In this document: piece after piece, positions 3,922 through 60,988 of the stretch
Layout: every line of letters starts with the position of its first letter
Numbering within the stretch: the first letter of the stretch is position 1
Origin: an uncultured Mycoplasmatota bacterium
GTDB lineage: Bacteria; Bacillota_I; Bacilli_A; RF39; UBA660
Direction: 5' to 3'
Length of the DNA stretch: 64,000 bases
Assembly (NCBI GenBank): GCA_947646095.1
Contig: CANSFI010000004.1
Span: 2,788-66,787, forward strand
The notes under the pieces: model-generated
Database searches by the model: none
What the model was told of the DNA's origin: nothing
Seen by the model: only the letters and a program-made list of their open reading frames with translations
Made by a program: the position numbers and the translations under genes

Positions 3922-4170
3922 TGTAAAATCATCCTCTTTCTAATTTACTTTTTAAATTCTTCTAAAACTTTATAAAATTAATAATTAAACGACTGTTGCT
4001 TTCAGTTCCATAGGAATTTCACCTTATTTCCGATTAATTGAGTCTATCACTAAATGGAAGTATCATTATCACAAATCTTCATCATTGCATTACTATTAGC
4101 TATAGTATTTATAATCAAGTTTTTATCATTAAGCGAACTTATTAACGTGCTTAGAAGATTTGATATGTAT
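3922..4170 (-). ncRNA. Candidate structured leader/ncRNA, copy 1 (diverged copy of 48600..48925)
   Basis: No ORF. Lies between a TTGACA box (4187-4192, minus strand) and the pseudogene start. Shares collinear sequence blocks with the ICE element (see findings). Confidence 0.3.
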
Positions 4171-4304
4171 TTAATTATTATTAAATTGTCAAAGAACAAA
4201 AATGAGAAATATATATGAGAGATTTTTTTCTCTCACTATATTCCTCATTTAAAATTAAAAAGTTAAGTTTAAAATTAGAAAATTATAAATATAAAATTTA
4301 TAAC

Positions 4305-5345
4305 TTATTTTACAATCCAGCCATTTGGAAGTTCCCTTTCACCAGTTGAACTATATCCACATGGTTCATTATAAAGTTTATTTTCAACTACTAGTGTTGT
4401 TGAAGCTCCTCCATCCATATTAACAGCATTGTAAGCTCCATATCGTTCTAGTATTTCGATTAAGCCATTCATATCAACACCACCACGACCACTCCAGTTG
4501 TATTTGTTTTGACCATTACCATCTACTACTAGGAATAGTACTATTCCATCTTTTCTTTGAGCTAAAACTGTTCTAGGATTAATTCCCCATCCTCCATTAC
4601 CAGAAATAGTAGCTGATTTTCCATTTACAATTAAGAAAGGTCCAAATTGAACAGCATCTCTTATACCTTTATTTATAGCATCCTGAGTAGTTCCATTCAT
4701 AAGTACTAAAACGTCATCTTGATTAAATCCAGCAATTCCTCCTATAGCATCCCCAGAATCCCATACTATTTTTCCATCTTCTATAACTGTTCCAAGTGGT
4801 ATTCCTCCATTACCATAACCACCAGGATCAGAAAATCCTCCAGCATTGATTGCGACTTTAGCATCATATCTTTTAGCAATATCAACTAAATATTCACCTG
4901 TAGAACCTAAATATTTAGTGGTTGCTACTTTAACTCTAGAAGGATCATAAATAGCAGTTAAATAAACATTGTAACCATTATATTTAAATTCAATTAATTT
5001 ATATAATGCATCTTTATCATGTTCTAATATTTGTTTATCATAAACTGATGTATAAGTAGCTGATACATCTCCTACTTTTACTTTAGATGTGTCTGTATCT
5101 TCTCCTATATTTGAAACATAATTTTGACTTAATACTTTATTGATTAATTCTTCTGAATAAAAGATACGAGCCAAGTATTTATGACTTTTAGTTGTCATAG
5201 CTGTAGTTATTAGAAAATCTCTAAAATAAGTAATAGGACCATATGTTAAGAAAAAACATATTGCTACTATTACATCAAAACCAATTAAAACTTTTAATAA
5301 TGTTTTTACCTTTTTTTTCTTTTTTTCTTTTTTCATATTTATCAC
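4305..5345 (-). CDS. Phosphodiester glycosidase family protein (DUF2233-like), N-terminal membrane anchor
   Basis: Motifs AINAGGF, RTVLAQRKDGIVLFLVVDG and NAVNMDGGASTTL. K-rich N-terminus followed by one TM helix. Overlaps the upstream gene by 4 nt. Confidence 0.7.
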   Translation of the reverse strand: MINMKKEKKKKKVKTLLKVLIGFDVIVAICFFLTYGPITYFRDFLITTAMTTKSHKYLARIFYSEELINKVLSQNYVSNIGEDTDTSKVKVGDVSATYTSVYDKQILEHDKDALYKLIEFKYNGYNVYLTAIYDPSRVKVATTKYLGSTGEYLVDIAKRYDAKVAINAGGFSDPGGYGNGGIPLGTVIEDGKIVWDSGDAIGGIAGFNQDDVLVLMNGTTQDAINKGIRDAVQFGPFLIVNGKSATISGNGGWGINPRTVLAQRKDGIVLFLVVDGNGQNKYNWSGRGGVDMNGLIEILERYGAYNAVNMDGGASTTLVVENKLYNEPCGYSSTGERELPNGWIVK

Positions 5346-6679
5346 CCTATTATATATGGATTTTCTTTTTCACCATTTCCTGATTTAACTTGTGAAGATA
5401 AATCTAAGAAAATAGTTGGTCTTATTTTAGCTTTATTACTTGGTAAATCAGCATATAAATTGTTATCTTTTTCTACTTTATAGATAGTTCCAATATAGGT
5501 ACTTGTTCTAGAAACTAAGAAATAATCACTATAGTCATTTATAAATAAATCACCAACTTGCATCATACCTACTTTTGCTTCTATTTTATTATCGAATATT
5601 TTACTATAATCAAAGTCAACTGTACTATCATATCTATTAGTATAAATAGTTCCTGTTACCATATTGGTATGATCTAAAGTTTCATAGAAGTTGTTATTTA
5701 AATAATATCCAATAGCACTATTAATAGAATATACATTAGAGTTATTACTAAATGATCTTTCATAATCTTCATCATTTTGTTTTATAACTCCATCTAAAGC
5801 TAATCTAATATAGCTATCATTTTTTTCTATTATACGCCAATTATTATTACTATAATTTACATAACTACCTATATTTTTATCTTTTAATAAATTACTTGAT
5901 TCTTGTTCAATTACATATGGTTTTTCTAAAGTACCTTCGCCACTTATAAGATCAATATCTCCTTTAATTGTAATAACAGGTCTTACTCCATAACTATAGT
6001 ACTCTTTACCTAAACTAGATACATCATTTAATTTACCATCATTGTACACAAACCAAACGCCTTCACTAGAGGTATTACTTAACCACCAATAATTATTTTT
6101 ATTTAGATAACTTTTACTTCCACCTGCGTTTTTATACTCAATTAATGAAAGTAATCCTACACTATCATTTTGTATTTCTTTGCATTTTATATCGTTACTA
6201 TCTAATGTATCAATACAAAAATTAGTATCAACTAAATAATTGTCTGGATTATTTAAACTTTTGTAGAAAACTCCATTAGAAGTATTATTTAACCAATTTT
6301 TTACATATGATGTTTTATAATCATCAATTCCCCAAACCAGATTAGTAAGAGATTCATCAGTTATTAATTTAATATTGTTATCTTTATCAATTGAAACAAT
6401 TCTAAATAAATATCCAGAGTATTTTAGATAGTTATTTACTTTATTTCCTTTAAATATATAACCATCATCTTCTTTATATAAACCATCTTCAATAGTAGTT
6501 ATATTTTTCTTTAAAGTTATAGTTTCTATTAAATTTAGTTTTTTTGTTGTCTTTGGATTCTCTATCCTATAAAAATGGATTAAACGATAAGCATAAAAAC
6601 ATGTAATTGCTAGAAGAATTACAATGTTTAAACATATTATAATATTTTGTATTTTTAATTTTCCCTTTTTCTTTTTCAT
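5342..6679 (-). CDS. Membrane-anchored protein with two WW..S...G-x-RP-type (DUF6273/DUF1566-like) modules
   Basis: N-terminal TM helix. Two modules end in YWWLSNTSSEGVWFVYNDGKLNDVSSLGKEYYSYGVRPVITIKG and ...KAKIRPTIFLD. The start lies 2 nt after the gpmI stop. Confidence 0.4.
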   Translation of the reverse strand: MKKKKGKLKIQNIIICLNIVILLAITCFYAYRLIHFYRIENPKTTKKLNLIETITLKKNITTIEDGLYKEDDGYIFKGNKVNNYLKYSGYLFRIVSIDKDNNIKLITDESLTNLVWGIDDYKTSYVKNWLNNTSNGVFYKSLNNPDNYLVDTNFCIDTLDSNDIKCKEIQNDSVGLLSLIEYKNAGGSKSYLNKNNYWWLSNTSSEGVWFVYNDGKLNDVSSLGKEYYSYGVRPVITIKGDIDLISGEGTLEKPYVIEQESSNLLKDKNIGSYVNYSNNNWRIIEKNDSYIRLALDGVIKQNDEDYERSFSNNSNVYSINSAIGYYLNNNFYETLDHTNMVTGTIYTNRYDSTVDFDYSKIFDNKIEAKVGMMQVGDLFINDYSDYFLVSRTSTYIGTIYKVEKDNNLYADLPSNKAKIRPTIFLDLSSQVKSGNGEKENPYIIG

Positions 6680-9159: not shown

Positions 9160-9190
9160 TATAAAATTTCTAGAATTAATCTAGAAATTA
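9160..9190 (-). terminator. Terminator hairpin after pseudopilin A
   Basis: Stem atttctaga (9166-9174) / tctagaaat (9180-9188) plus a U run on the minus strand. Nearly identical to the hairpin at 10824-10844. Confidence 0.6.
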
Positions 9191-10747
9191 TGTGTTTTTA
9201 GATACTTTTATAACAGGGCGGACACCACCACTGCTGTTGTGAGTGACGTTGTTGTAATAGACATGCTTACCCTGGCAGTACACACCGAAGCCACTGTCAG
9301 GAAGATCGGAGCGCGCAGTAGATACCCAATACATATATGGTTGTTCAACTGTATTTCCTCCACTTAAATTTTCGTATAACCAGCTTGGACAAGTGTTTTT
9401 ATTTTGATTATGTTCACATCCTAAATTTGTTACTTCTGTTAATGTCAACATTCTTGTTCTTACATTGGTTCTTTTTATTTGTTGGTACATTACTTTTGAA
9501 TCACTTATTCCTAGTTGTTGTTCTAACTTTGATGGCTTGTCATCTTCTAATGTATAATCATATGCAGGTATATTAGTCCAATTTTTAGTTAAATCTTCTA
9601 ATTGATTTAATGCTGTGAGTGGACCTTTATTATTGTTTCCATATTCTCCATAATCACTTTCTGTTCCTCCTGCCTTAATATAATCTTCTTTAGAGATCCA
9701 AGCTACTTTTGGTCCTATATTTTTATTCATAATTAATTCTATATATTCACCTGTATCATTTATGACATAAAAATCATATGATTCTTTACTATTTACATGA
9801 ACTTTTACTTTAGTTCCATTTGGACACTTTTGTTTACCATTTATACAAAAATCATATGCTTCCATTATTTTATATTTATATGGTCCTACTACTACTATTC
9901 TATTTTTACTTGTCTCATTTCCACTTTTATCTATAGCTGTATAAGTTACATTATATGTTCCTGGTATTTTTAGACTTACATTACTTTTTACTTTTATTTC
10001 TACTTCTTCTTTACTATTATCTGTAGCTGTTACTCCTTCTAGTGGATTAAATGTCTCTTCGGTTTCTTTTAATATTATATTTCCTGGTATTTTTAATTCT
10101 GGTTTTTTAGTATCTACTATTTTTACTGTTCTTGATACTTTACTTGTTTTTCCATTACTTGTTACTGTATATGTTATTATGTATTGATTATTTAGGATAG
10201 TTGTATCTATATAATTACCACTTCCTGTTATTTTTGTTTTAACACTAGAAGTTATATCATTATTATCTTTATCTTTTGCAACTACTCCTAAATCATAATA
10301 TGGTTCATTTACTTCTACTAATTCTATACTACTTCCATTTAATATTATTGTTGGTTTATTTATATCAATTATACATTCATCACTTTCTTTAATAGTTTTT
10401 TCATCGATAGAATAATTAGTAATTTTATCTTTTACTTCTATTTTTAATATCATACTGTTATCGAAACATTTTTTTGTTTTAGGATTTCTTATTTCATAAT
10501 CGATATATCCTTCACTTTTTAAATTACCTAAAGTAAGGGTTAATATTCCTTCTTCTGGTAATAATTCTTTATTATCGCTTGCCCAATTTTGTAATGATAG
10601 TTTTATATTATCTAGTTGTGTATTATATATTTTATTACTGTTTTCTTTTATCATTTTTTCTAATGTAGGAGTTACTATTAATCCTATTATTCCTATTATT
10701 GTTATGACTGCTAGTAATTCTACAAAGGTAAATCCTTTTTGTTTCAT
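9188..10747 (-). CDS. Large prepilin-type (type IV pilin-like) protein with Ig-like repeats and lectin-like C-terminal domain
   Basis: N-terminal cleavage/methylation motif KGFTFVELLAVITIIGIIG. The middle has Ig-like repeats (DITSSVKT..YTVTSNGKTS; YNVTYTAIDKSGNETS). The C-terminal ~220 aa are paralogous to 20775..22067. Confidence 0.8.
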   Translation of the reverse strand: MKQKGFTFVELLAVITIIGIIGLIVTPTLEKMIKENSNKIYNTQLDNIKLSLQNWASDNKELLPEEGILTLTLGNLKSEGYIDYEIRNPKTKKCFDNSMILKIEVKDKITNYSIDEKTIKESDECIIDINKPTIILNGSSIELVEVNEPYYDLGVVAKDKDNNDITSSVKTKITGSGNYIDTTILNNQYIITYTVTSNGKTSKVSRTVKIVDTKKPELKIPGNIILKETEETFNPLEGVTATDNSKEEVEIKVKSNVSLKIPGTYNVTYTAIDKSGNETSKNRIVVVGPYKYKIMEAYDFCINGKQKCPNGTKVKVHVNSKESYDFYVINDTGEYIELIMNKNIGPKVAWISKEDYIKAGGTESDYGEYGNNNKGPLTALNQLEDLTKNWTNIPAYDYTLEDDKPSKLEQQLGISDSKVMYQQIKRTNVRTRMLTLTEVTNLGCEHNQNKNTCPSWLYENLSGGNTVEQPYMYWVSTARSDLPDSGFGVYCQGKHVYYNNVTHNSSGGVRPVIKVSKNT

Positions 10748-15958: not shown

Positions 15959-16327
15959 CTACTTTTTCATTACTTTATAATTAAATATTTGATCGTTACC
16001 AACTTCTACTTTAACCTTATAATTAGTAACAGAAGTATTATCATTAGGATCTTTTAAATCTTGTTTTAAATATTCTGCATCAATTAAAATATTAGTATCT
16101 ATTTCTATACTACTTCCTATATTATTGAGTTCTGGATATTTTTCTCTATTTCTTTCTACATATAATTCAGAAGCTCTAATAATAGCTTTTTCAAAATCTT
16201 TATATTCTTGATCCTCGCTCCTTTTTATAGTATTAATAATAGATGGAACACTAATTAATATTATAGCTGCAAGTAAAGTAACTACTGCAATTAGTTCTAC
16301 TAATGTAAAACCTTTATTTTTTTTCAT
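15959..16327 (-). CDS. Small prepilin-type (pseudopilin-like) protein
   Basis: N-terminal KGFTLVELIAVVTLLAAI methylation motif. Stop codon lies 10 nt upstream of the pgk start. Confidence 0.8.
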   Translation of the reverse strand: MKKNKGFTLVELIAVVTLLAAIILISVPSIINTIKRSEDQEYKDFEKAIIRASELYVERNREKYPELNNIGSSIEIDTNILIDAEYLKQDLKDPNDNTSVTNYKVKVEVGNDQIFNYKVMKK

Positions 16328-17365: not shown

Positions 17366-18379
17366 CTATTTATTTATTAATTCACCTAAGTATTTAGCTG
17401 TTCTAACCATTTGAACACTATAACTCATTTCATTGTCATACCAGGCAATTACTTTTACTAGTTGTTTTCCATCAACTTCTAAGATACTTGTAAGAAGTCC
17501 ATCTACAAGTGATCCAAAATGTGAACCAATGATATCGCTTGAAACAATTGGATCTAAAGTAAATCCTAAAGTTTCATTAGCGTTTTTCTTAAATGCTTCA
17601 TTTATTTGTTCTACAGTAATATGTTTATCTAATTCTAAAGTTAAGTCAATAACACTTCCTGTTGGTGTTGGAACTCTTAAGGCACTTCCATCAAGCTTAC
17701 CTTTAAGTTCTGGAATAACAAGTCCAATTGCACTAGCTGCTCCTGTAGAAGATGGTACTATGTTGGCAGCTCCAGCCCTACCACGGCGAGCTTTTATTCC
17801 TTTTTTATGTGCTACATCTAAAATTGCTTGATCATTAGTATAAGCATGTACTGTAGTCATATAGCCTTTATTAATTTTAAACTCATCATTAAGTACCTTA
17901 ACTACAGGTGCTAAACAGTTTGTAGTACAACTAGCAGCACTAATAATTTGTTCACTTCCATCAAGGATATTATGATTTACATTATAAACAATTGTTTTAA
18001 CATCACCTTTAGCTGGAGCTGAAATAATTACTTTTTTAGCACCTGCTTCTATATGAGCCATAGCTTCTTCTTTCTTAACAAATTTACCAGTACATTCAAA
18101 TACTTCATCTATTTCTAATTCTTTCCAAGGTAAATTCTTAGGATCCATTAAAGCATATACTTTTATTCTTCTATTTCCTACTATTAAATCATTACCTTCA
18201 AAACTAATTTCATCATTACGATAATTTCTATGGTTAGTATCGTATTTAAGAAGATACGCTAATTGTTCTGCATCTGTTAAATCATTGATTGCTACTACTT
18301 CAAAACTTGGATCTTCTTCCATTAATCTAAATACAAGTCTTCCTATTCTTCCAAATCCATTGATTGCTACTTTTATCAT
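17366..18379 (-). CDS. gap: Glyceraldehyde-3-phosphate dehydrogenase
   Basis: NAD-binding motif INGFGRIGR. Active-site motif ASCTTNCLAP. Confidence 0.95.
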   Translation of the reverse strand: MIKVAINGFGRIGRLVFRLMEEDPSFEVVAINDLTDAEQLAYLLKYDTNHRNYRNDEISFEGNDLIVGNRRIKVYALMDPKNLPWKELEIDEVFECTGKFVKKEEAMAHIEAGAKKVIISAPAKGDVKTIVYNVNHNILDGSEQIISAASCTTNCLAPVVKVLNDEFKINKGYMTTVHAYTNDQAILDVAHKKGIKARRGRAGAANIVPSSTGAASAIGLVIPELKGKLDGSALRVPTPTGSVIDLTLELDKHITVEQINEAFKKNANETLGFTLDPIVSSDIIGSHFGSLVDGLLTSILEVDGKQLVKVIAWYDNEMSYSVQMVRTAKYLGELINK

Positions 18380-20743: not shown

Positions 20744-20776
20744 AAAAACTTAGATTTTTAAGTCTAAGTTTTTATT
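20744..20776. terminator. Bidirectional terminator between clpP and pseudopilin B
   Basis: Stem aacttaga (20747-20754) / tctaagtt (20763-20770), flanked by A and T runs. Confidence 0.6.
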
Positions 20777-22067
20777 ATAAATTTTTTGGTACTTTTATTA
20801 CTGGTCTTATACCACAATATGAGTTGGATTCTAAATCATAAATGCCAACATTACCACTATAAGTAACTGAATATGCATAATAATAACCCAAGGTATCTTT
20901 GTTATAAGAGGTAGTCAACCAATATCCACGTGGTAATTTATCACTACTACTACCGCTAGTATATTCGTATAAATATTTTGGACATCCACCATCTGTTTTA
21001 CATCCTAAATTTTTAGTTTCTGTTGCTGTTAGCATTCTAGCTCTTACATCTGTTACCTCTATTGATTTATAATTTATTTTTTCACTAGAATTAAAAACAG
21101 GTTTATCATCTTTTAGTGTATAGCTATAGCTTTTAATATTAGTCCAATTATCAGTTCTCTTTTTTAATACTCTAAGAGCGGTTAATGGGCCCTTGTCATA
21201 ACTTCCATAATTGGTTCCACCAGTTGCTTCATAATCTTTTTTTGATATCCAAGCTATATTTTCTCCTAAATTTTTATTCATAATTAAAGTCAATTCACTT
21301 CCTGTATCATCAATTACATAGAACTCATAATTTTCTGTATCATTTACTTGAACGGCTACTCTTGTTCCATTTTCACATATAGTATTATTATGAATACATT
21401 TATTAGTAGATGTTAATATATATTCAGTTACTGTTATAGGTATTTCTTTTTTAGTTCCATTTATATCTATTGTTGCTTTTGTTGTTCCAATACTTTTAGC
21501 TTTTATCTTACCATTTTCTACAGTAGCTATATTTTCATTAAGACTTTCTATTTTAAAATTTCCATTTTGAAAATTTAAAGTAACTGAATCTCCTAAATAC
21601 ATTTCTATCGACATACTTAATAATACACTATCTGTTGAATTTGTTGATATATTACAATTTTCTAAATTATTACTTATTTTTATTTCTGTTTTATTTAGTT
21701 CTTTAGTTGCGCACCATTTTCCATTTGTTATTGCTAGTTCTATTTTACCTTCTTTAGTAACAATCATATTACCACTTGTTGGTTTTTTACCTTTTATTTC
21801 TAATTCTTTAGCTTCTGGAAAGGTAAATGTTACATCTTCTTTCATTTCTTCTACTTCTAATAACTTATTAGAATAATATAGTTCTCCAGATTTTATAATT
21901 CCATAAGCACTATTTTTAAATGCTTCTTTTTTTGATTTTTCTACTATATTTATTACTAATGGTATTGTAATTAAAGCTATTATTCCAAGTATTATTATAA
22001 CTGCAAGTAATTCTATTAAAGTAAAACCCAATGTTGCAAGTTTAAACTTTTTCCTATTATTTTTCAT
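20775..22067 (-). CDS. Large prepilin-type protein, paralogue of 9188..10747
   Basis: N-terminal LGFTLIELLAVIIILGIIA. The C-terminal domain aligns with pseudopilin A (YEFYVIDDTGSELTLIMNKNLGENIAWISKKDY..., GPLTAL, VRARMLTATE, CGIRPVIKVPKNL). Confidence 0.8.
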   Translation of the reverse strand: MKNNRKKFKLATLGFTLIELLAVIIILGIIALITIPLVINIVEKSKKEAFKNSAYGIIKSGELYYSNKLLEVEEMKEDVTFTFPEAKELEIKGKKPTSGNMIVTKEGKIELAITNGKWCATKELNKTEIKISNNLENCNISTNSTDSVLLSMSIEMYLGDSVTLNFQNGNFKIESLNENIATVENGKIKAKSIGTTKATIDINGTKKEIPITVTEYILTSTNKCIHNNTICENGTRVAVQVNDTENYEFYVIDDTGSELTLIMNKNLGENIAWISKKDYEATGGTNYGSYDKGPLTALRVLKKRTDNWTNIKSYSYTLKDDKPVFNSSEKINYKSIEVTDVRARMLTATETKNLGCKTDGGCPKYLYEYTSGSSSDKLPRGYWLTTSYNKDTLGYYYAYSVTYSGNVGIYDLESNSYCGIRPVIKVPKNL

Positions 22068-45014: not shown

Positions 45015-45276
45015 ATTCGTGTCCAAAATTCAAAAATTCGTGTCCTGACTAATTTTTAGTGCTTCAAAATCTGACTTTTTTGCTTGGACACGAATGTCGG
45101 CCACAAATTTACTAAATGATACTAAATAACACTACATGATACGAGCCAATTTCTAATAATATATTTTAACACTTATTTTAAAACAAAACAAGGAAACACC
45201 TATATGTTCCCTTGTAATTATTTTTATCATTTTTGCTATTCTTTATACATATTTATTAATCATTAAATTCGTGTCC
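45015..45276. repeat. Four copies of ATTCGTGTCC at the ICE end
   Basis: Direct copies at 45015-45024, 45036-45045 and 45267-45276. Inverted copy (ggacacgaat) at 45086-45095. Confidence 0.85.
45178..45215 (-). terminator. Terminator of the recombinase operon
   Basis: Stem acaaggaaac (45188-45197) / gttcccttgt (45206-45215) with one mismatch, then UUUUGUUUU on the minus strand. Confidence 0.65.
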
Positions 45277-46541
45277 AAATCTTCTACTATTGGTGTCAAT
45301 AAATTGTGTAATATTTCTTCTGGTTTAACTCTATCAATATAACTATTTAATTCACTTGTACAATCAATTATTAACCTATTTTTATCAAAATAGACATTAG
45401 ATGTGATAATGGTAGAAGCATGACCTAATAACTCTGAAACTGCCTTTAAATCATAATTATTAATTAATAATAGTGTAGCATAGGTATGCCTTAAATCATG
45501 AAAACCAATATTAGGCAAGTTATTATCCTTTAATAATTTTAAATAATATCTTCTATGAAAGTCTTTACTTCTTGGTTTTCCATAAGTAGAACAACATATA
45601 TACTTATGGTCATAAAATGGGTTATGTTTATCATTAATTCTTCTATTTCGATTTCTTTCATATTTTTGCTTTTCATTTAAGATTGCTTCAAACACCATAT
45701 CTGGAATATCTAACACTCTTTCACTATGATAAGACTTTAATTCGATTTCTTGTTTAGTAAGCATCTTTCTAGGACAATCATCAATCGTATCACTTGTTTT
45801 TCTTCCTAATTGTACTCTCAAATATAGTTTTCTATTAACAAAGTCAATATCAGTATATTTTAAGCCATTAATCTCTTGTTTCCTTAATCCCATTAAGACT
45901 GCAAATAGAACTTGCAAATAAATGGGAGTCGATTTACTAGCTTCTATTAAGGTTTTTATTTGTTCTACATTTAATACTTGTTCTTCCTTAATAACTACTG
46001 TTTTATATTCCTTTTTCTCAATGGTTTTAGGTAAAGATATATTAGCAGTTGGATCAGCTTCTATCAAGTTTTTATCTTTAGCATATTTCATTGCTGTTTG
46101 CATAATTGTTTTTGCTAATCTTGCTATAGATTCATACTTACTAGCAGTATCATTATAAAACTTTTGAATATGTCCCATATTAATCTGTATTAGATTAAGA
46201 TTACCTAAAAATGGAATAGCATAATTTTCTATAACATTTCTATATGACATATAAGTATTATACTTTCCAGGTTTTATTTCTTTATCAAGCCAATATCTCA
46301 TATAAACTTCAAACTTAATCTTGGGTTGAACTACAAAGGTATGATTAATAAGTTGAGAGGCAACTTTATCTCTTTCAGCAGTTGCCTCACTTTTCTTTGT
46401 AAATCCACCAATTTGTATCATATCTTCTGTATCATCATTAAAAAATAATTTTAGTCTAAAACCATATTTATCTTTTAATTTAATAACAGAATATAACTTG
46501 TAATCTATATATGTTTTATTAAATAACTCATTATCCAACAT
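45243..46541 (-). CDS. Tyrosine recombinase/integrase 1
   Basis: Catalytic motifs GLRKQE, HDLRHTYAT and LGHASTIITSNVY. AP2-like arm-binding N-terminus (GFTKKSEATAERDKV). Confidence 0.9.
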   Translation of the reverse strand: MLDNELFNKTYIDYKLYSVIKLKDKYGFRLKLFFNDDTEDMIQIGGFTKKSEATAERDKVASQLINHTFVVQPKIKFEVYMRYWLDKEIKPGKYNTYMSYRNVIENYAIPFLGNLNLIQINMGHIQKFYNDTASKYESIARLAKTIMQTAMKYAKDKNLIEADPTANISLPKTIEKKEYKTVVIKEEQVLNVEQIKTLIEASKSTPIYLQVLFAVLMGLRKQEINGLKYTDIDFVNRKLYLRVQLGRKTSDTIDDCPRKMLTKQEIELKSYHSERVLDIPDMVFEAILNEKQKYERNRNRRINDKHNPFYDHKYICCSTYGKPRSKDFHRRYYLKLLKDNNLPNIGFHDLRHTYATLLLINNYDLKAVSELLGHASTIITSNVYFDKNRLIIDCTSELNSYIDRVKPEEILHNLLTPIVEDLDTNLMINKYV

Positions 46542-47733
46542 ATTCTACACCATCCTCTATAGCAAATAAATCATTCATAAATGATAATATTTTTTCTTTT
46601 TCATCCATAACCTCACAATAATATTCAAAAGTAGTATGAATAGAAGTATGTCCTAACATAGCAGATATTTTAGGTAAGGTTACTCCCTCTTCCAATAATA
46701 TTGTTGCACACATATGCCTAAGTCCATGAACTGATATATGAGGTAAACTTAATTTATTACATAATTTTGTTAAAGCTGAATTCATAGCATTTAAACAATG
46801 ACACTTACCATCAACTTGACAACTTATATAATCATGTTCCTCATATTCATCTCCTAGACTTACTTTATTATTATTAATTAATGAATTTCTTTTATTTAAT
46901 TCTTCCATTATTAAATCTGGTACTTTTAAGCAACGAATACTATTATCTGTTTTGGGATTTTTTTCAACCAGTCGATAATTTATTAATTGACTACTATTCT
47001 CTACTAGTTCTCCCTCTCTAACGATTTGTCTTTCTATTCTTACAGTTTTATTTTCTTGGTTAAAGTCTGTTGATTTTAACCCAAGTATTTCTCCTTTACG
47101 AAGTCCCACAAATAATCCTAACAATATCTCTAAATACCAATTTGTTTTCTTTGCTTCCTCTAGTAGTCTTTTTATTTGGGATTCACTTAAAACTCTAATC
47201 TTTGGTTTTGGTCTTCTATACAATTTTGTATTTAAGGCAGGATTATAAGTAATATATCCTCCTGTAACTGCATCTTTCATAGCCATAATAATTATATTTC
47301 TTGAAGAGTAACCACCCGATTCAGTCATCTTACTTGCTTTTTCTATTATCTCATCTAAATAGTCAGTTGTTACCATACCAATTTTTAAATTGTATTCGAT
47401 ATTAGGAACTATTAAATCGTGGACAATATATGCACCAACAATTCTAGTATTAGACGAAGCTCTTTCATAATAAATATGTCCAAACCAATAGATTAAATAA
47501 TCTTTAAACATTATTTCTTTATCAACAGTAACATAAAACTCTCTTTGTGCTTCTTCAAATTCTTTTTCATACTTACGATAGCTTTCAACTGCCTCTTCTT
47601 CAGTTTTAAAACCCTTTAATTTTAGATATTTTACTTTCCCATTTTTTTCAAGAACCTTATATCTATGACACCATGAGGTATATTCAAAAAATGCTACTCC
47701 ACTTTTTCCTTTTTTAATTTCTCCTTTTGACAT
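46531..47733 (-). CDS. Tyrosine recombinase/integrase 2
   Basis: Catalytic motifs GLRKGE, HGLRHMCAT and LGHTSIHTTFEYY. AP2-like N-terminus (KGFKTEEEAVESYRKY). Start at MSKGEI after AAGGAG. Overlaps integrase 1 by 11 nt. Confidence 0.9.
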   Translation of the reverse strand: MSKGEIKKGKSGVAFFEYTSWCHRYKVLEKNGKVKYLKLKGFKTEEEAVESYRKYEKEFEEAQREFYVTVDKEIMFKDYLIYWFGHIYYERASSNTRIVGAYIVHDLIVPNIEYNLKIGMVTTDYLDEIIEKASKMTESGGYSSRNIIIMAMKDAVTGGYITYNPALNTKLYRRPKPKIRVLSESQIKRLLEEAKKTNWYLEILLGLFVGLRKGEILGLKSTDFNQENKTVRIERQIVREGELVENSSQLINYRLVEKNPKTDNSIRCLKVPDLIMEELNKRNSLINNNKVSLGDEYEEHDYISCQVDGKCHCLNAMNSALTKLCNKLSLPHISVHGLRHMCATILLEEGVTLPKISAMLGHTSIHTTFEYYCEVMDEKEKILSFMNDLFAIEDGVEYVG

Positions 47734-47747
47734 AGTTAAAACTCCTT

Positions 47748-47936
47748 TCAATTATTGTTGAGCCACTGATCAAAGGAATCTTTAGGAATACGATATAACT
47801 TTCCAATTTTGATTACTCTAAAAGGTTTTTGCCTTTTATATACTTCTTCTAAAAACTTATATGCTTTTGTTCTTCCAAGTCCTAAAAGTTTTTGTACTTC
47901 AGATATGCTATATACTTTTTTATTTTCAGTATTCAT
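47748..47936 (-). CDS. xis: Excisionase-type helix-turn-helix DNA-binding protein
   Basis: 62 aa. YSISEVQKLLGLGRTKAYKFL...IKIGKLYRIPK is typical of the excisionase/MerR-like HTH. Confidence 0.75.
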   Translation of the reverse strand: MNTENKKVYSISEVQKLLGLGRTKAYKFLEEVYKRQKPFRVIKIGKLYRIPKDSFDQWLNNN

Positions 47937-48032
47937 CTATTTCCTTTCATATTGATACTGGCTCTTTCGTATAAAAGATACCAGTTTTAAAAAATAATTA
48001 CCAATGTACAAATTTTTTCATTTGTAATTTTT

Positions 48033-48374
48033 TTATTCCAAACCAAAAGAGATAGAAATTGCTTTTTCTACCTCTTTCATTTGTTCATGTTCTAGCATAC
48101 CCATATACCCTTTTAGTCTTGTTTTATCTAAAACTCTTATTTGTTCTAATAGAATAATTGAATCATGTCTTAATTTGTCAAACTGCTTTATTAATATATG
48201 AGTTGGCAATAACTTATCTTTTCTAGTTGATATTGGAGCAACTAATACAGTTGGACTATATTTATTACCTAAATCATTTTGTATAATTAAAACAGGTCTT
48301 ATACCCTGTTGTTCACTACCTATTATTGGATCTAAATCTGCATAGAATAAAGCTCCTCTAACTATGTTTTTCAT
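48033..48374 (-). CDS. mazF: MazF/PemK-family endoribonuclease toxin
   Basis: RGALFYADLDPIIGSEQQGIRPVLIIQND...VLVAPIS. Start taken at the Met 8 nt after GGAG. Confidence 0.85.
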   Translation of the reverse strand: MKNIVRGALFYADLDPIIGSEQQGIRPVLIIQNDLGNKYSPTVLVAPISTRKDKLLPTHILIKQFDKLRHDSIILLEQIRVLDKTRLKGYMGMLEHEQMKEVEKAISISFGLE

Positions 48375-48558
48375 CAACATCTCTCCTCTCATGTATTTTT
48401 TTAATTCTTATTTTTATATTTTTTCTAACCTCTGGTAATTTTAAAATTTGGGTTTCATCACTAATATAAATAACTTGTTCACGAATATCCTGTTCAGATG
48501 TTCCATCTAAATCAAAATCATATTTTTTTGTTAATCTAACTCTATATCTATTTAACAT
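48358..48558 (-). CDS. 66-aa protein in the antitoxin position (no MazE/RHH/AbrB resemblance recognised)
   Basis: Overlaps the mazF start by 17 nt. Acidic middle and basic C-terminus. AAAGGA RBS. Confidence 0.35.
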   Translation of the reverse strand: MLNRYRVRLTKKYDFDLDGTSEQDIREQVIYISDETQILKLPEVRKNIKIRIKKIHERRDVDEKHS

Positions 48559-48599
48559 CTTAAAAATCCTTTCTTTATGTATAAATACCAGTTGTTTAA

Positions 48600-48925
48600 T
48601 AAAGTTCGCTAAAATATAAATAATTACTATTTCACTAACCCCAACTGGTATTCAAAATCTATATATATTAAATGTGTTAATATTGTTCCTACCCCCTCAA
48701 CACTGGGAATCATTAAATGACTATTTGCTAAATAGTTCCATAGGACTTGAACCTCCCTGTGGTTCTCACAGAGTCGCACCCATTGATTTGGTCTGTGGCT
48801 ATGCGAAAGTATCATTATACCTACTATTCATCCTCGCATTATTAGGAGCAACCTAACATTTATAGTCAAGCTTTTATCGACAAGCGAACTTACTAAAGTG
48901 CTTAAAATAATAGGAATGTATTTAA
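48600..48925 (-). ncRNA. Candidate structured leader/ncRNA, copy 2
   Basis: Non-coding gap with a G+C-rich core (48680-48860), TTGACA at 48942-48947 (minus strand), multiple nested and alternative helices, and 5'/3' end pairing AAGTTCGCT/AGCGAACTT (plus 48883-48891 and 48602-48610). Confidence 0.45.
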
Positions 48926-48960
48926 TGACTAGATAATAAATTGTCAAAGAACTTTGTTCT

Positions 48961-49008
48961 AAATAAAAGAACAAGTGAGAAAGAGCAAAAATACTCTTCT
49001 CACTTGTT
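48961..49008 (-). terminator. Terminator after the sigma-like gene
   Basis: Stem aacaagtgagaaagag (48970-48985) / ctcttctcacttgtt (48994-49008), then a U-rich run on the minus strand. Confidence 0.7.
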
Positions 49009-49037
49009 TGGCAGTTTAAAAGCATTTATAGGGGGTA

Positions 49038-49511
49038 TTATTTTAAATTTTTTTGAATTTTTTCAATTCCTTTGTAAATACTTTCCCTAACTGATGATTC
49101 ATCACAACTCTCTTTTTCAGCAATTTGTTTGAAATTCATATCATCATAGTAATACATCTTAAATCTTCTTTTTTGTGTTTCAGTAAGTACATTAAATGCT
49201 TTCTTTATATCTTCTAATAGCAATTTTTGTTCAACCTCTTCTTCTAAAGAAAGGGGCTTGTCCATTCTTCTATTATTTAAAGAATCTTCATAAACTTCTG
49301 AATGTTCTATATGACTTCTATATTTATGTATTTGAGAAATATCTTCAAGTTCAAATTTATCAAATGCATGATATACTTCTTCTGATATTTCAACCTTATG
49401 AATAATTTTTTTATTATCAGTAAATTCAACTGTATAAATATTACTTATTTCATCAAAATCTAGTGTATAAGGATTATCCTTACTTTTATTTCTTTTTGGC
49501 ATTTTTGCCAT
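49038..49511 (-). CDS. Sigma-70 region-4-like HTH regulator (Tn916 Orf7-like)
   Basis: C-terminal LTETQKRRFKMYYYDDMNFKQIAEKESCDESSVRESIYKGIEKI matches the region 4 / LuxR-like HTH pattern. Confidence 0.6.
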   Translation of the reverse strand: MAKMPKRNKSKDNPYTLDFDEISNIYTVEFTDNKKIIHKVEISEEVYHAFDKFELEDISQIHKYRSHIEHSEVYEDSLNNRRMDKPLSLEEEVEQKLLLEDIKKAFNVLTETQKRRFKMYYYDDMNFKQIAEKESCDESSVRESIYKGIEKIQKNLK

Positions 49512-49600
49512 TTTAGTTATCCTCCAATCAATTTGAAATTTTTTAAATCAAATTGATTAGTGGTGGACTTCTACACCTAAATAACCTACCTATGCAAAGG

Positions 49601-49648
49601 AAAATAAAAAAGCCGAGCATTACTCCCTCAAACAAAGGAAAATGCTCG
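49601..49648 (-). terminator. Rho-independent terminator upstream of the sigma-like gene
   Basis: Stem cgagcatt (49614-49621) / aatgctcg (49641-49648), then UUUUUUAUUUU on the minus strand. Confidence 0.6.
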
Positions 49649-50083
49649 ACTTTCTCATTCAAAATTCTTTTTTCTCCATCTTCGTATTCAGCAATCATAG
49701 GCAACCTCTTCTTAATCACCTTTTATAAAAGCTAAATACTACATTATTTTGGTTTGCTTTCGTAATAAAGAAGGGGCTATTTTACCACTACTATATACTA
49801 CCTTTTACTCTTTCTTATTATCCATTAGGTAATTTTCAAACACATTATACGACATAAATATTGCAAATTTTGTCATATTCAGTAAGGTTTGTCTAATTTC
49901 ATACAAAAATGTATTTTTTCATCAAAAAAAGACTATCTTTGTTGATAATCTCTTTGATAATAATTTGTATTTATTATAATTAAACATAATTAGCATTATA
50001 TCAATTAATAACAAATATTGAATACAATCTACTCTATAAATTTTAATTTGTAATGCTTCTATAAAACTTAATAGTTTTTATTC

Positions 50084-50109
50084 TTGCTATGATAGATGTA
50101 TCATAGCAA
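50084..50109. repeat. Perfect 10-bp inverted repeat abutting the stop of 50111..50935
   Basis: ttgctatgat (50084-50093) / atcatagcaa (50100-50109) with a 6-nt loop. No U run on either strand. Confidence 0.7.
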
Positions 50110-50110
50110 A

Positions 50111-50935
50111 TTAATTGGATTTAGAACCTACTTGTTCTAAAATATCATAAAGTTTTATTTTCTCTCCAGAAGGAAAATGTATTACATAATTAGATTTATA
50201 TTTTCCAGCAGATTGATACACTTTAAAAACTTCTGTTGCTAATTCCATTGTTGGTATAAATCCAGTTTTTGCTAATGTCTGTAAAAACCATTGTGTTGCT
50301 TCTACCACATAATCTGTATTCACATTACCATTTTGAAATTGTTTAAAATCTAATTCCTTGTCCATTTCTTCTTTGGAAATTTCCTTAACATCATATATCT
50401 TTTTGAAATCAACTACAGCTTCCTTTTCACCACAAGCATTTTGATCTAAATAACATATAATATCTTTTTTATTTACTTTTGCTTCTAAGACCGTTCCTTT
50501 TGAATCATATTTCTTATAAAACCAAATAGCTCTATCTTTATCAATAGTCCATGATATTGCTTTCTTGCTATTACCTTGAGATGTTCCACGATAAATTGTT
50601 ACTATTTCTGGCAAGTTGTTAAATACTTCATAATCTAAATCCATTAATACTTTTAAATTGGCATTTTTAAATAAGTCTAATATTTCATCTAAAGTTATTT
50701 TTGCATCTTCATTATTTAAACCTGATGTTTTTGTATATGCTGTTCTTAATCCAAAACAATAATCTTCATCTGTAAGCAATGAGCTTATTTCTTTAAATAT
50801 ATATAATCTACTTTTCGGATTAATATTTTGAATTATCAAATATAAATCTGCATTAGGAAAGTTAATTGGTCTATCTAAATGCTCACTATACTTAGTATCA
50901 ATCAAATCTATTATTTTTTGTAATCTATTTTCCAT
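50111..50935 (-). CDS. Hypothetical protein with a possible R-S-ExE ADP-ribosyltransferase-like core
   Basis: VTIYRG (R120), AISWT (S132/T134) and GEKEAVV (E174-x-E176), each in the expected strand context. GGAGGA RBS before MENRLQK. The R-to-S spacing is unusually short. Confidence 0.3.
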   Translation of the reverse strand: MENRLQKIIDLIDTKYSEHLDRPINFPNADLYLIIQNINPKSRLYIFKEISSLLTDEDYCFGLRTAYTKTSGLNNEDAKITLDEILDLFKNANLKVLMDLDYEVFNNLPEIVTIYRGTSQGNSKKAISWTIDKDRAIWFYKKYDSKGTVLEAKVNKKDIICYLDQNACGEKEAVVDFKKIYDVKEISKEEMDKELDFKQFQNGNVNTDYVVEATQWFLQTLAKTGFIPTMELATEVFKVYQSAGKYKSNYVIHFPSGEKIKLYDILEQVGSKSN

Positions 50936-51080
50936 AAAGTCCTCCAAAAAATCGTAAAATATTGTAGCATGATTTTTTTTTAAATACTATAAAAAAATAA
51001 AAATAGGACAATCAGCCCTATAAACTTGCTATTTTTCTTTCTCTTTAATTATATCAAAAAAAGCAAATTGTAAATATGAT

Positions 51081-51545
51081 TCATTTTATTTCCTTATTAT
51101 CAGTTCTTCCTACTAAATAATCGAACGATATGTCATAATATTGTGCTATAACAAGCAATTTTAAAGTTGTAGGTATTCTTTTTCCTGATTCATAATAAGC
51201 ATAAGTCCTTTGTAAAAAACCAAGTTTATTGCTTAATTCTTCTTGTGTTAACTTCTTATCTTTTCTTAATTGTAATAATCTCTCTACGAGTTTTTTATAA
51301 TCAATTTTGTAATGTTCTGGAATAAAATTTCTTACATGAGATAAACCAAGTAAATAGTCTAAAGAAGTTTGATAATAGTTGGCAAGAGCATTACTTTTAT
51401 CTAATTTCATATCATTTATACAATTTTCCCATTTGGAGTAAGTATTTCTTTTTACACCTAAAACATTTGCTATATCTCCTTGTTTTAATTCACAATCAAG
51501 TCTTAATTCCTCATATCTTGTTGTTAAATTATATCCTGTTTTCAT
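51081..51545 (-). CDS. Tandem XRE-family HTH protein
   Basis: Two HTH_XRE units: LKQGDIANVLGVKRNTYSKWE and LTQEELSNKLGFLQRTYAYYE. Confidence 0.8.
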   Translation of the reverse strand: MKTGYNLTTRYEELRLDCELKQGDIANVLGVKRNTYSKWENCINDMKLDKSNALANYYQTSLDYLLGLSHVRNFIPEHYKIDYKKLVERLLQLRKDKKLTQEELSNKLGFLQRTYAYYESGKRIPTTLKLLVIAQYYDISFDYLVGRTDNKEIK

Positions 51546-51752
51546 AGAATCACCCTATAATAATTTTAAATGAATATTGAATAATCGTTGACTTTCGGGA
51601 CGCTATGTTCTAAAATAGGCTTATAGTATAAAAAAATAGTAGTACAAAAAGGAGTTTTTTTGATAAATTCTCTCTTGTTTTGTGCTACATTTTTTTTACT
51701 ATGTTATATTTATTGTATTATGAAAGAAAGTGAGGTGAATTTTTCATTTGTA

Positions 51753-52004
51753 CTAACCTTTATTTGTGTTAATTTTTGCATCTTTGGAAATTGTAATATC
51801 TATTCCATGTGTTCTTGCAATTTGTAATAAAGTTTCAACTGTCCATTGTCTTTCTGCCTGTTCATAGGATTGAATATTTCTTTCAGTTCTATATATTGAC
51901 TCTGCAAATTCCTTTTGTGTGAGTCCAGTCCACTCACGCATAATTTTAAGAATCTCATCAGCAGTATAATCTGTAGCTTTAAGTTGCACTTTACCACCTC
52001 GCAT
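51753..52004 (-). CDS. XRE-family HTH regulator
   Basis: LTQKEFAESIYRTERNIQSYE. Divergent from the plus-strand genes starting at 52102. Confidence 0.7.
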   Translation of the reverse strand: MRGGKVQLKATDYTADEILKIMREWTGLTQKEFAESIYRTERNIQSYEQAERQWTVETLLQIARTHGIDITISKDAKINTNKG

Positions 52005-52101
52005 CTACACTACCAATAATAGTATGCAAATATTTTACTAAATAATTACAAAATTATTTCAAAACTATCGCAATAAGAGGGATAACAAATAAATAAGAAA
52101 T

Positions 52102-52395
52102 ATGATAAATAAATTATATAAAATGAGAATTAATAGCTATATGAAAAAAGAACAAAAAAAGTATAAAAATACTAATCATCTTATTGTTTATGAAAAAGAC
52201 TATTGGAAAATAAGATTTAATAACTACACCTATATCATCAAAACTGTTAAGCAAAAAAATGAATACTATATAAGACTTACCCCTTATCAAAAAACTTATT
52301 TTCAAACAAAACTTAATTTAAAAGATATAGCATCACAAGTTCCTATGACTTTATTTGCTATGAAAGAAAATGAAGAGTTATATAGACATGACTAA
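52102..52395 (+). CDS. Hypothetical protein
   Basis: 97-aa ORF, K/Y-rich. Only positional support. Confidence 0.3.
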   Translation: MINKLYKMRINSYMKKEQKKYKNTNHLIVYEKDYWKIRFNNYTYIIKTVKQKNEYYIRLTPYQKTYFQTKLNLKDIASQVPMTLFAMKENEELYRHD

Positions 52396-52509
52396 TATCA
52401 AAACAATAAGAAAGTGTTTTATTGTCAAATAGATTCGTTAATTCAAAAAAACATATAACTTACAAGATACAGTAAATATCTTGTTAAAAACTAGAAAGAG
52501 AGGACTTCA

Positions 52510-53417: not shown

Positions 53418-53481
53418 ATAAGCGACTATTAGTACAAAGTTGTTTATATATAATATGTATAAAGAGTGCAAAAACACTCTT

Positions 53482-55107: not shown

Positions 55108-55108
55108 T

Positions 55109-58076: not shown

Positions 58077-58079
58077 TTT

Positions 58080-58568: not shown

Positions 58569-58585
58569 CTCCTATCTTCTTATAA

Positions 58586-60210: not shown

Positions 60211-60217
60211 AAACCAC

Positions 60218-60511: not shown

Positions 60512-60512
60512 A

Positions 60513-60983: not shown

Positions 60984-60988
60984 ATTTT

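Follow-up and report, generated by a model that had tools for sequence, protein, structure and literature searches.

The pseudopilin locus

The window (the whole 64-kb stretch of DNA analysed here) contains, at 9188..10747 of the minus strand, a gene for a modular pilin-like protein, or pseudopilin, of 519 residues. Its product is laid out as a prepilin signal, followed by Ig-like domains and then by a C-terminal module of ligand-binding type; all window features given below lie on the same strand. The prepilin signal (MKQKGFTFVELLAVITIIGIIGLIV, residues 1-25, 10673..10747) combines the N-terminal cleavage/methylation motif with the hydrophobic alpha-1 helix and is recognized in Pfam as N_methyl (PF07963, E=3.2e-6); the pseudopilin family profile matches the solved type IV pilin structures PilE1, MshA, PilA and GspG. 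Two Ig-like surface domains occupy residues 136-287 or thereabouts (9887..10342), where two stretches correspond to Bact_surface_Ig-like (PF16403, E=1.3e-18), the best of them at residues 231-287, and where weak Filamin/HYR-like matches extend over residues 136-280.

The C-terminal module (residues 290-519, 9191..9880) carries the variable segment with which this study is concerned. Its AlphaFold2 model (pLDDT 92.4, pTM 0.90) has a predicted DUF6273/DUF1566-like fold: in Foldseek searches it is matched by DUF6273 phage proteins at E values of 6e-6 to 1e-3 (TM 0.40-0.50) and more weakly by DUF1566 phage proteins. Among PDB structures, classical C-type lectins come up no better than at E ~2, which makes any link to them faint, and the structure search returned no match to Mtd or TvpA. 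In Pfam the C-domain is without a match at E<=0.1, the gathering thresholds of DUF6273 and DUF1566 not being reached, and the resemblance of the modelled domain to these families is structural only. NCBI labels P0246, a relative described below, and P0077 as 'DUF1566 domain-containing protein'. Immediately downstream, a perfect 10-bp hairpin with a 5-nt loop (AATTTCTAGA/TCTAGAAATT, 9164..9189), recognized from sequence and fold, overlaps the stop codon of the pseudopilin gene. It is terminator-like and may have a role in retrohoming; the related locus L207 likewise has a hairpin directly past its stop codon.

Two further genes of the window carry modules of the same family. One, at 20775..22067, encodes a paralogous pseudopilin whose equivalent segment lies at 20802-20906; the other, at 5342..6679, encodes a DUF6273 protein (PF19789, E=6.6e-7, 29.8 bits) with a YW...GVRPVI module at 5978-6076. 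A second small N_methyl gene is present in the syntenic locus of another strain (L121:4417-4785).

A G+C-rich patch at the 3' end of the gene

Positions 9215-9325, which translate to VSTARSDLPDSGFGVYCQGKHVYYNNVTHNSSGGVRP, stand out sharply from their surroundings. Our counts (60/111 G+C, or 54.05%; 22 coding-strand A, or 20%; 29 T, or 26%) agree with those of the initial annotation, which had set the patch against a background of about 25% G+C; the baseline is 25.7% for the 64-kb window and 27.3% for the pseudopilin gene. The richest 111-mer of the window, at 9216-9326, reaches 55% G+C, some 5 SD from the mean (25.7%, SD 5.6%). At codon level, GC3 is ~0.61-0.62 as against 0.11 +/- 0.06 elsewhere in the window. 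None of the 34 codons ends in A (mean expected, 15.4), although 45% of third positions are A in the host genome; 17 end in C, 13 in T and 4 in G. Several codons that the initial annotation had singled out as rare are indeed so, as judged from relative synonymous frequencies in the long ORFs of the window (GCG 0.016, CGC 0.015, TCC 0.031, GGC 0.05, GTG 0.031, GTC 0.035, CAG 0.061). Ranked among 14,774 windows of 34 codons, the patch comes out as the single most extreme, so that amino-acid composition does not explain it. Poor in A, made up largely of NNC and NNT codons and devoid of third-position A, the patch has the compositional footprint that adenine mutagenesis of an AAC/AAT-rich template would leave.

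The composition is alien to the genome in purine as well as pyrimidine counts, as might be expected of a foreign tract of higher G+C unconnected with any diversity-generating retroelement (DGR), or of a G+C-rich nucleic-acid element such as a structured RNA or a recombination site. We consider an origin of this kind highly improbable. The predominance of C and T at third positions (30/34) is the NNC/NNT pattern of variable regions written from AAC/AAT templates and not high-G+C usage in general. Moreover, four lineages of the family show this signature at matching codons, two of them having proven template repeats (TRs), which tells against the foreign recombination tract that the initial annotation had entertained as an alternative. 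A structured RNA can be rejected, as the patch has no match in Rfam and folds no better than shuffled sequences on either strand (z-scores of +1.74 sense and -0.23 antisense), and blastn against phages gave no match to it. A protein search with the 60-residue patch peptide alone yielded no candidates. A G+C-rich stretch in locus L125, tried as a related anomaly, was rejected as well: it belongs to a collagen-like (GPT)n gene, and its third positions, being A or T, mark it as unrelated to the patch.

Within the family, the modules fall into two classes. Those of class A have a G+C content of 0.50-0.58, a GC3 of 0.53-0.72 and A at no more than 0.09 of third positions (A3 <=0.09); those of class B are ordinary in these respects. 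The other two modules of the window belong to class B and bear no DGR mark in the case of the paralogous pseudopilin, whose segment was correctly described as AT-rich in the initial annotation (G+C 0.30, GC3 0.17, A3 0.26); the values for the DUF6273 protein are similarly ordinary (0.33, 0.21 and 0.27). Class A comprises the window lineage and three others, L207, L170 and L158. TRs are proven for both of the lineages examined for one, L207 and L170; the class-A segment of L158 comes from the MAG CAYOYB01.

These data also bear on gene conversion from silent cassettes. In Neisseria, pilE is varied by RecA-dependent gene conversion from silent pilS cassettes, and the window gene resembles pilE in encoding a type IV pilin-like protein with a putatively hypervariable C-terminal part. 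Unlike the Neisseria system, the window holds no silent copy of the patch (none in the 64 kb at <=3 mismatches or by repeat search), its paralogues, ~71-75% identical, are A+T-rich over the variable segment, and the codon signature is the one predicted for adenine mutagenesis. Within the 64 kb, the silent-cassette mechanism thus finds no support.

DGR targets in relatives of the pseudopilin

In related pseudopilins, the equivalent C-terminal segment is a proven variable region (VR) that can be paired with a TR. These pairs were found by a custom sliding count of non-A mismatches, a BLAST-based repeat finder having missed them. In L207, which encodes the close family member P0023, the TR (871-975) and the VR (2261-2365) are identical at 88/105 positions, and all 17 mismatches are at TR adenines. 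Reverse transcriptase (RT) and TR lie 1.4 kb upstream of this VR, the RT (IGNMTSQ...YMDD, RVT_1) being directly upstream of the TR/VR pair. In the L207-type cassette the RT is P0123, the TR encodes ATANSNNSNNSF... and the whole is situated upstream of the S10 operon. A second case is provided by the MAG SVAS01 (L210/L209), where an avd-RT-TR cassette, with bAvd and RT adjoining the TR in L210, serves both an adjacent pseudopilin and a remote one, P0246, on another contig. The TR (contig 2) and the remote VR (contig 1) are identical at 84/105 positions, with 21 mismatches at A and none elsewhere; compared with the cis VR, the same TR has 19 mismatches at A and 2 elsewhere. P0246 and the window gene share the gene order TIM, Spo0A, pseudopilin, iPGM, DUF6273 protein, with 81-88% amino-acid identity between the flanking genes of the two loci. 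By virtue of this common neighbourhood, the two pseudopilins are positional orthologues.

Alignment to the proven pairs of L207 and L210/L209 delimits in the window a VR-type segment of 108 nt, CTACTGCGCGC...GTCCGCCCTG (9214..9321), which is G+C-rich, A-poor and free of A-ending codons. It corresponds to codons 476-512 of 519, at the C-terminal end of the reading frame, and is set in a conserved scaffold between flanks (YW.ST and G.RPVI) that are maintained in 58 family members. In pairs of close homologues this segment, and it alone, is massively different (17/29 residues, as against 20/327). Its G+C-rich 3' end, GGTGGTGTCCGCCCTG (9214..9229), has the position of an IMH-like element. TR/VR homology stops after GGTGGTGTTCGCCCAG in L207, the VR continuing with TTAT and the TR with ATTC, and after GGTGTGCGCCCAG in L210/L209, where TTAT follows in the VR and ATTT in the TR. 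The window sequence past GGTGGTGTCCGCCCTG is TTAT, as in the proven VRs; its 3' end matches the point at which homology ends in the proven pairs, a putative IMH-like boundary. The initial annotation had likened a G/C run at the 3' boundary to an IMH.

Composition is in line with this assignment. The proven VRs have 50-59% G+C and 15-17% A, their TRs 41-49% G+C, 33-35% A and 16-26% T; the patch is within the VR range in G+C and, at 20%, slightly above it in A. The composition of the proven pairs accounts for the G+C richness of the patch and for its depletion in T. The window VR also shares the codon framework of the L207 template, TR207 (TCC, TTC, GTG, GGT, GGT GGT GTy CGC CCx), and its identity to TR207 at non-A sites is 0.76; codon shuffles give 0.62 +/- 0.07, and cross-family controls 0.57-0.69. 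These likenesses, together with the positional orthology, show the window VR to be homologous to VRs with a demonstrated TR. In our judgment, then, the patch is likely to be the VR of a DGR target. The argument for a DGR is one of comparison with relatives and not with a template of its own.

The search for such a template covered several levels. No TR was found in the 64-kb window, nor within +/-10 kb of the locus in four other strains; a motif scan and tblastn detected no RT in the window or the strain loci. The statement in the initial annotation that the window lacks both was thus upheld by repeat, motif and tblastn searches. Scans of genomes, metagenomes and viral contigs with a degenerate TR pattern (fixed third positions, verified on the window and on the four strain loci, L121-L124) gave 0 matches, in collections that are without the source genome and in which the VR itself is also unmatched. 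The two templates in hand were rejected as sources of the window VR, TR207 for 17 non-A mismatches and TR210 for 27, with a difference in length of one codon in either case; as judged by these alignments, no known TR could have templated it.

Origin and present activity of the variable segment

The best account of these findings is that the patch is very probably the footprint of a DGR by which a putative binding tip is rewritten, the template lying at another site of the genome. In such a system, the reverse transcriptase together with Avd copies an adenine-rich TR RNA into cDNA, misincorporating at template adenines, and the cDNA replaces the VR as far as the G+C-rich 3' end element. The TRs of this pilin family consist of AAC and AAT codons set in a framework that is rich in G/C, poor in T and free of A at third positions; randomizing their adenines produces an NNC/NNT segment of ~50-59% G+C, conspicuous in a genome of 25% G+C. 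The rewritten residues lie in the DUF6273/DUF1566-like module, predicted to be a ligand- or surface-binding tip. As the cassette is not beside the window gene, the target would be remote and served in trans, as is the positional orthologue in SVAS01. The suggestion in the initial annotation of a DGR-type VR on a pilin-like tip served in trans is supported by P0023 and P0246 and by the composition and 3' end of the patch. Our verdict is that the window VR is a remote or an orphan DGR VR. A sister TR would have written it and would still be in the genome; the presence of the cognate TR and RT in the source genome is rather to be expected, while an orphan left behind by a lost cassette is a lesser, though real, prospect.

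Population data are relevant to this choice. The VR is identical on four contigs from four samples (L121-L124; ERZ15043514, ERZ15043546, ERZ14889988 and JGI 3300006217), and the window allele differs from it at 6/111 nt. All six differences are confined to the 3' 36 nt of the VR (9233..9268), the sole stretch that distinguishes the two known alleles, which are identical over the first 57 nt of the VR, on its 5' side, and over all sequence 3' of this stretch. Four residues differ (K494E, T502A, N504D and S505M). Three of the differences are A/G and three are of other types (C/T, G/T and C/G), the C/T one being synonymous. Invariance between strains had been named in the initial annotation as an argument against a DGR. 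Taken at face value, the near-invariance observed, with only three of the six differences at A, is such an argument. It loses some of its force in view of the proven remote VR of SVAS01, which varies no more: 17 contigs carry a single protein-level VR for P0246, whose cis sibling does vary. Whether the cassette is present or lost, the window VR is seldom rewritten over the time that strains take to diverge.

One could regard the segment as a fossil, written by an ancestral DGR of which the cassette or the matching TR was later lost or became divergent, so that the patch would now be an ordinary, slowly evolving coding sequence that has not yet reverted to the A+T-rich codon usage of the genome. 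Such a fossil is a special case of the DGR reading, sharing its origin and differing in present activity, and we hold it to be plausible without favouring it. Consistent with it are the stasis in four samples, the synonymous C/T and the C/G differences, changes that adenine mutagenesis does not predict, and the absence of TR and RT from the 64 kb. In addition, the nearest TR, that of L207, does not fit, and the organism of the L207 locus may be the same or closely related, as L208 and L123 come from one sample. Yet the patch retains a GC3 of 0.61 and has not one A-ending codon, whereas A occupies 45% of third positions in the genome; such limited decay implies that the last rewriting was recent on the timescale of amelioration. 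Nor is stasis proof of loss, given that the perfectly TR-matched remote VR P0246 is equally static.

A further possibility is that the patch was made by a DGR at another locus, the VR-bearing 3' end having been imported by recombination from another pseudopilin, in a paralogue or another strain, that was diversified by its own DGR. The pseudopilin gene is a hotspot of recombination and divergence (5.3% divergence, as against ~0.4% across 19 kb of flanks) and contains mosaic blocks: P0002, for instance, is near-identical to the window protein at residues 330-420 and only 57% identical overall. The cis and remote targets of SVAS01 are identical in their 3' flanks over more than 100 nt, showing that such copies arise by duplication, which counts in favour of import. 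Against this, none of 152 family members proved to be a donor with the window VR sequence, and a positional orthologue in another genus-level lineage is directly targeted by a DGR at the same locus, which makes targeting in place the simpler explanation. Import is therefore improbable in our view.

On a bolder reading, the window gene would still be active within a so far undescribed DGR network of several targets, in which one avd-RT-TR cassette of uncultured A+T-rich gut Bacillota reprograms the binding tips of several modular type IV pilins. In this scenario, the copy adjacent to the cassette would change fast, whereas remote copies at the TIM-spo0A-iPGM locus would be rewritten rarely and act as 'archived' specificities. 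We put this forward tentatively, as a reading that we consider less likely than not.

The DGR mechanism itself is already known; it is the pilin-like class of targets that is poorly described. DGRs with several or remote targets include those of Treponema denticola (TvpA and its paralogues) and Legionella (LdtA), the prototype being that of Bordetella phage BPP-1 (Mtd). With these the present system shares a C-terminal VR on a conserved scaffold, the logic of an AAC-rich TR, a G+C-rich end of homology, an avd-RT-TR cassette (seen here in the relatives L207 and L210) and the use of one TR for several targets, some of them distant. It differs from all three in that the target is type IV pilin-like, with a prepilin signal, and belongs to an uncultured, very A+T-rich Bacillota lineage, and from TvpA and Mtd in that the module is DUF6273/DUF1566-like and not a demonstrated CLec or FGE fold. 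An analogy may also be drawn with the DGRs of type V pili in gut Bacteroidota, which likewise diversify a pilus component at its tip or adhesin part and also occur as many related cassettes across a clade. Those pili are sortase-independent and belong to another phylum, whereas the product of the window gene is a subunit of a type IV filament and carries a methylation motif at its N terminus. Targets with a pilin N-terminus and a DUF1566-like VR have appeared in the literature, in lists only and without anatomy, synteny, cis-versus-trans or population data; they probably represent the same class as the window gene. A DGR target of this kind, which the initial annotation called unusual, is so with respect to the literature but not within this clade, where DGR-marked pilin-like targets are common. 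The fusion of a pilin N-terminal module to a bulky C-terminal functional module has a counterpart in Streptococcus sanguinis PilB, which is thought to be adhesive at the pilus tip (PMC8179133). The PilB module is not diversified by a DGR, whereas the module grafted onto the window protein carries a segment that was probably written by a retroelement.

A practical corollary is that, in a gene for a surface protein, a short 3'-terminal island that is G+C-rich and has no codon ending in A can serve as a template-free flag for DGR targets. It is suited to very A+T-rich genomes and catches remote targets that are missed when TR/VR pairs are sought within single contigs of fragmented MAGs. What it indicates here is that uncultured gut Bacillota possess a family of modular type IV pilin-like proteins with retroelement-written tips. 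If the network outlined above is real, no DGR-diversified type IV pilus-tip system of Gram-positive-type bacteria would have been defined anatomically before it. The clear contrast between fast-changing cis targets and near-static remote ones is relevant to the way in which DGRs divide diversification between paralogues, and also to how these unculturable organisms adapt their adhesion.

The pseudopilin gene and its G+C-rich patch

The pseudopilin gene (9188..10747, minus strand) encodes a protein of 519 aa that combines a prepilin N-terminal methylation motif with Ig-like surface domains and a C-terminal module lacking a Pfam assignment. The family profile matches solved type IV pilins via the N-terminus. 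For the module (residues 290-519), the confident AlphaFold2 model (pLDDT 92.4, pTM 0.90) predicts a DUF6273/DUF1566-like fold: it matches phage proteins of DUF6273 and, less strongly, of DUF1566 (E 6e-6 to 1e-3; TM 0.40-0.50), and resemblance to classical C-type lectins is seen only at E about 2 at best. A small 122-aa gene with an N_methyl prepilin motif lies at about 15959-16327 (minus strand; position mapped from 4417-4785 of L121, the same locus in another sample), between PGK and a DUF4358 gene, and may encode a partner pilin.

Recounting the patch at 9215-9325 reproduced the base counts of the initial annotation: 60 of its 111 nt are G or C (54%) and the coding strand has 22 A (20%) and 29 T (26%), in a window of 25.7% G+C. 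No other 111-mer in the 64 kb is as rich in G+C; the value lies ~5 SD over the mean. The second G+C peak of the window (17681-17791, 49.5%) falls within the GAPDH gene (17366-18379). The codon-level statistics also agree with the rare codons listed initially. GC3, the G+C share of third codon positions, is about 0.61-0.62 in the patch versus 0.11 +/- 0.06 in the long ORFs of the window; third positions are C 17, T 13, G 4 and A 0 times, where 34-codon windows contain on average 15.4 A-ending codons; and in synonymous-codon frequency the patch ranks as the most atypical of 14,774 such windows. Because GC3, A3 (the A share of third positions) and synonymous-codon usage are all extreme, amino-acid content does not account for the patch. 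A truly amino-acid-driven island is found at L125:5188-5943 (minus strand), a collagen-like (GPT)n gene for a BclA-type surface protein that reaches 62% G+C in a 27% contig; there the G+C comes from Gly/Pro/Thr codons and third positions are still A/T.

A structured RNA was considered and rejected: no Rfam family matches the patch, and in comparison with its own shuffles it folds worse on the sense strand (z = +1.74) and alike on the antisense strand (z = -0.23). Nor is the patch an assembly artefact, since it is also present on four other contigs, each from a different sample. It has no phage match.

The window also contains an integrative conjugative element, which spans 45243-63585 and runs off the window end. 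It encodes an adjacent pair of tyrosine integrases (45243-46541 and 46531-47733), a sigma-70 region-4 protein (49038-49511), a VirB4/TraG-type ATPase (55109-57424) and a T4SS coupling protein (62224-63585). One match to the Rfam pemK RNA motif lies at this element (48738-48818, minus strand, 55.3 bits) and another adjoins the NAGPA-domain gene (4008-4069, minus strand, 36.5 bits); both are part of a sequence of ~150 nt that is repeated at 70-80% identity (4030-4180 versus 48779-48931).

Diversity-generating retroelements in related genomes

The protein search gave 152 relatives, most of them encoded in MAGs of uncultured gut-type Bacilli and Bacillota. A common C-terminal layout is seen in 58: YW.ST, ~30 variable residues and G[VIL]RPVI, in that order. 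Frequent among the variable residues are N, Y, H, D, S, G, F and C, the AAC-to-NNC repertoire. Close pairs diverge strongly there and little in the rest of the protein: between P0078 and P0094, 17/29 residues differ within the segment and 20/327 outside; between P0022 and P0023, 13/29 and 38/333. At the DNA level we distinguish class A modules (window, L207, L170, L158), with G+C 0.50-0.58, GC3 0.53-0.72 and A3 <=0.09, from class B modules (L125, L126, L137, L196) with ordinary codon usage. The window's own two paralogous modules belong to class B, which upholds the paralogue comparison made in the initial annotation. An orphan class A segment, L158:2604-2699 (G+C 0.51, GC3 0.53), has no RT within 10 kb; its MAG, CAYOYB01, is labelled Muribaculaceae and is Bacilli-like in content.

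Template repeats (TRs) were sought with a purpose-written sliding scan that scores mismatches where the candidate template is not A. In L207, a 105-nt TR (871-975) lies 1.4 kb upstream of the variable region (VR) of P0023 (2261-2365). The two are identical at 88/105 positions, and all 17 mismatches fall at TR adenines. This TR is within the 3' end of an RVT_1 reverse transcriptase (RT) ORF (IGNMTSQ...YMDD) and is translated as the RT tail ATANSNNSNNSFNVNYNGNVDGNSVFNNNNGGVRP; seven further RTs, 74-81% identical, have similar Asn-rich tails. The arrangement, with the TR inside the RT ORF as an Asn-rich C-terminal tail, marks one RT subgroup (L207:871-1001; P0123-P0129, P0150).

The second system acts at a distance. 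The class A VR of L170, on contig SVAS01000001, has no RT within 10 kb, and a TR-style degenerate pattern built for it has exactly two matches in 596 Gb of reference genomes: the VR itself and SVAS01000002, a second contig of the same MAG. On the latter, bAvd, RT, TR and the pseudopilin P0247 follow one another. The TR, with 37 adenines, agrees with the remote VR at 84/105 positions, and all 21 mismatches are at A; against the cis VR it has 19 mismatches at A and two at other bases. As its TR fits both VRs, one cassette serves a cis and a trans target. This TR lies ~86 nt downstream of the RT stop, unlike that of the L207 subgroup, and an identical 3' flank of >100 nt is common to the cis and remote targets. 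SVAS01 (L170, L209, L210) holds at least four paralogous VR-bearing pseudopilins (P0246, P0247, P0077, P0257); at the protein level P0257 is also compatible with the MAG's single TR, and P0077 has a few changes that do not appear adenine-derived. Directly after both TRs stands a conserved sequence, ATTYYTTTAAAACTA...AAAAGCTAAAGAAAACAAGT (L207:976-1035; L210 reverse-complement 6377-6436), with the same predicted stem-loop arrangement; it probably belongs to the portion of the DGR RNA that priming requires.

Proven TRs have 41-49% G+C, 33-35% A and 16-26% T, and proven VRs 50-59% G+C and 15-17% A. A DGR would swap the adenines of AAC/AAT codons for random bases, and a TR framework that is G/C-rich, T-poor and free of third-position A would then give NNC/NNT codons and locally high G+C. 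The composition and third positions of the window patch fit adenine mutagenesis of such a TR. Its T depletion (~26%), entered initially as a caveat in favor of a foreign tract, is accounted for by the T-poor framework.

Relation of the window's probable variable region to the proven systems

Around the SVAS01 remote target P0246 (MBE6143986.1) the genes are ordered as they are around the window's gene (TIM, Spo0A, pseudopilin, iPGM, DUF6273 protein, NAGPA), with 81-88% protein identity in the flanking genes; the window's gene is therefore the positional orthologue of a demonstrated trans target. Aligned to the L207 template (TR207) with a one-codon gap, the window VR shows a common framework, GCx xxC TCC ... 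xAC AxT xGC TTC xxT GTG xAC TxC ... GGT ... GGT GGT GTy CGC CCx. TR207 was nonetheless rejected as its direct template: apart from the gap, identity at non-A template sites is 76%, compared with 97-100% in true pairs, 57-69% in cross-family controls and 62 +/- 7% in codon shuffles. The VR is thus related to TR207 without being its product, and its template would be a sister TR longer by one codon. The VR ends 3' in GGTGGTGTCCGCCCTG, with TTAT next; this end matches the element where TR/VR homology stops in both proven systems; past this element their VRs run on TTAT and their TRs ATTY.

P0002 is 57% identical to the window protein overall and nearly identical over ~90 residues (aa 330-420) of the C-terminal module; it is a mosaic formed by recombination of pseudopilin lineages. 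Judged from the protein, its VR-equivalent, FSNHTYYSFNVNYNGGVGGTDGHNYGH, has the look of a DGR-written segment.

Strain variation and the status of the system

Between window and L121, identity is 99.4-99.8% over 19 kb of flanks and 94.7% in the pseudopilin gene, a hotspot of divergence between strains (9188-10747 versus L121:10001-11560; 5.3% against ~0.4%). The differences are concentrated at gene nt 420-540 and 1020-1440, a distribution suggestive of mosaic allele exchange. Six fall in the VR, all in its 3' 36 nt (three A/G, one C/T, one G/T, one C/G), altering five codons, four of them non-synonymously. The segment is not hypervariable, and adenine mutagenesis alone does not account for all six changes. 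A single VR is common to L121-L124, the locus in four other samples, even with 23 differences between L121 and L124 in the rest of the gene. Within the SVAS01 lineage, the cis target has different VRs on near-identical ~194.7-kb contigs (P0247, P0249, P0256), and P0247 and P0252 differ only in the VR 3' half, whereas the perfectly TR-matched remote VR (P0246/P0254/P0255) is identical at the protein level on 17/17 contigs. Stasis is thus normal for a remote target and no sign of cassette loss. The window VR keeps a GC3 of 0.61 and no A3 although 45% of third positions in the genome are A, an argument for a last rewriting that is recent on the scale of codon-usage decay.

As first noted, the 64-kb window contains no RT, no TR and no second copy of the patch. 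No RT remnant was found by tblastn in the window or the strain loci, where the sole match was that of the RT's TR-encoded tail to the VR itself. Scans for a sister TR gave no match in genome, metagenome and viral contig collections; these also lack the genomes of both VR alleles, and since patterns fitting the VR itself return nothing there either, the result carries little weight.

DGRs whose VR is C-terminal and that reach remote targets are known from Treponema and Legionella; this is the standard mechanism, and the window gene would be a case of it. In Bacteroides, DGR targets linked to type V pili have been characterised (bioRxiv 10.1101/2024.11.15.621889). PMC11661182 lists G-type pilin domains as scarce among the domains that bear VRs, and PMC6642488 mentions putative pilin structures for DUF1566 targets. 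The literature search gave no account of modular type IV pilins written by DGRs in Bacillota. We are inclined to believe that a matching TR and RT are still present in the window's source genome. With greater confidence, we consider a DGR origin of the patch highly probable and conclude that it is a remote or orphan DGR variable region.
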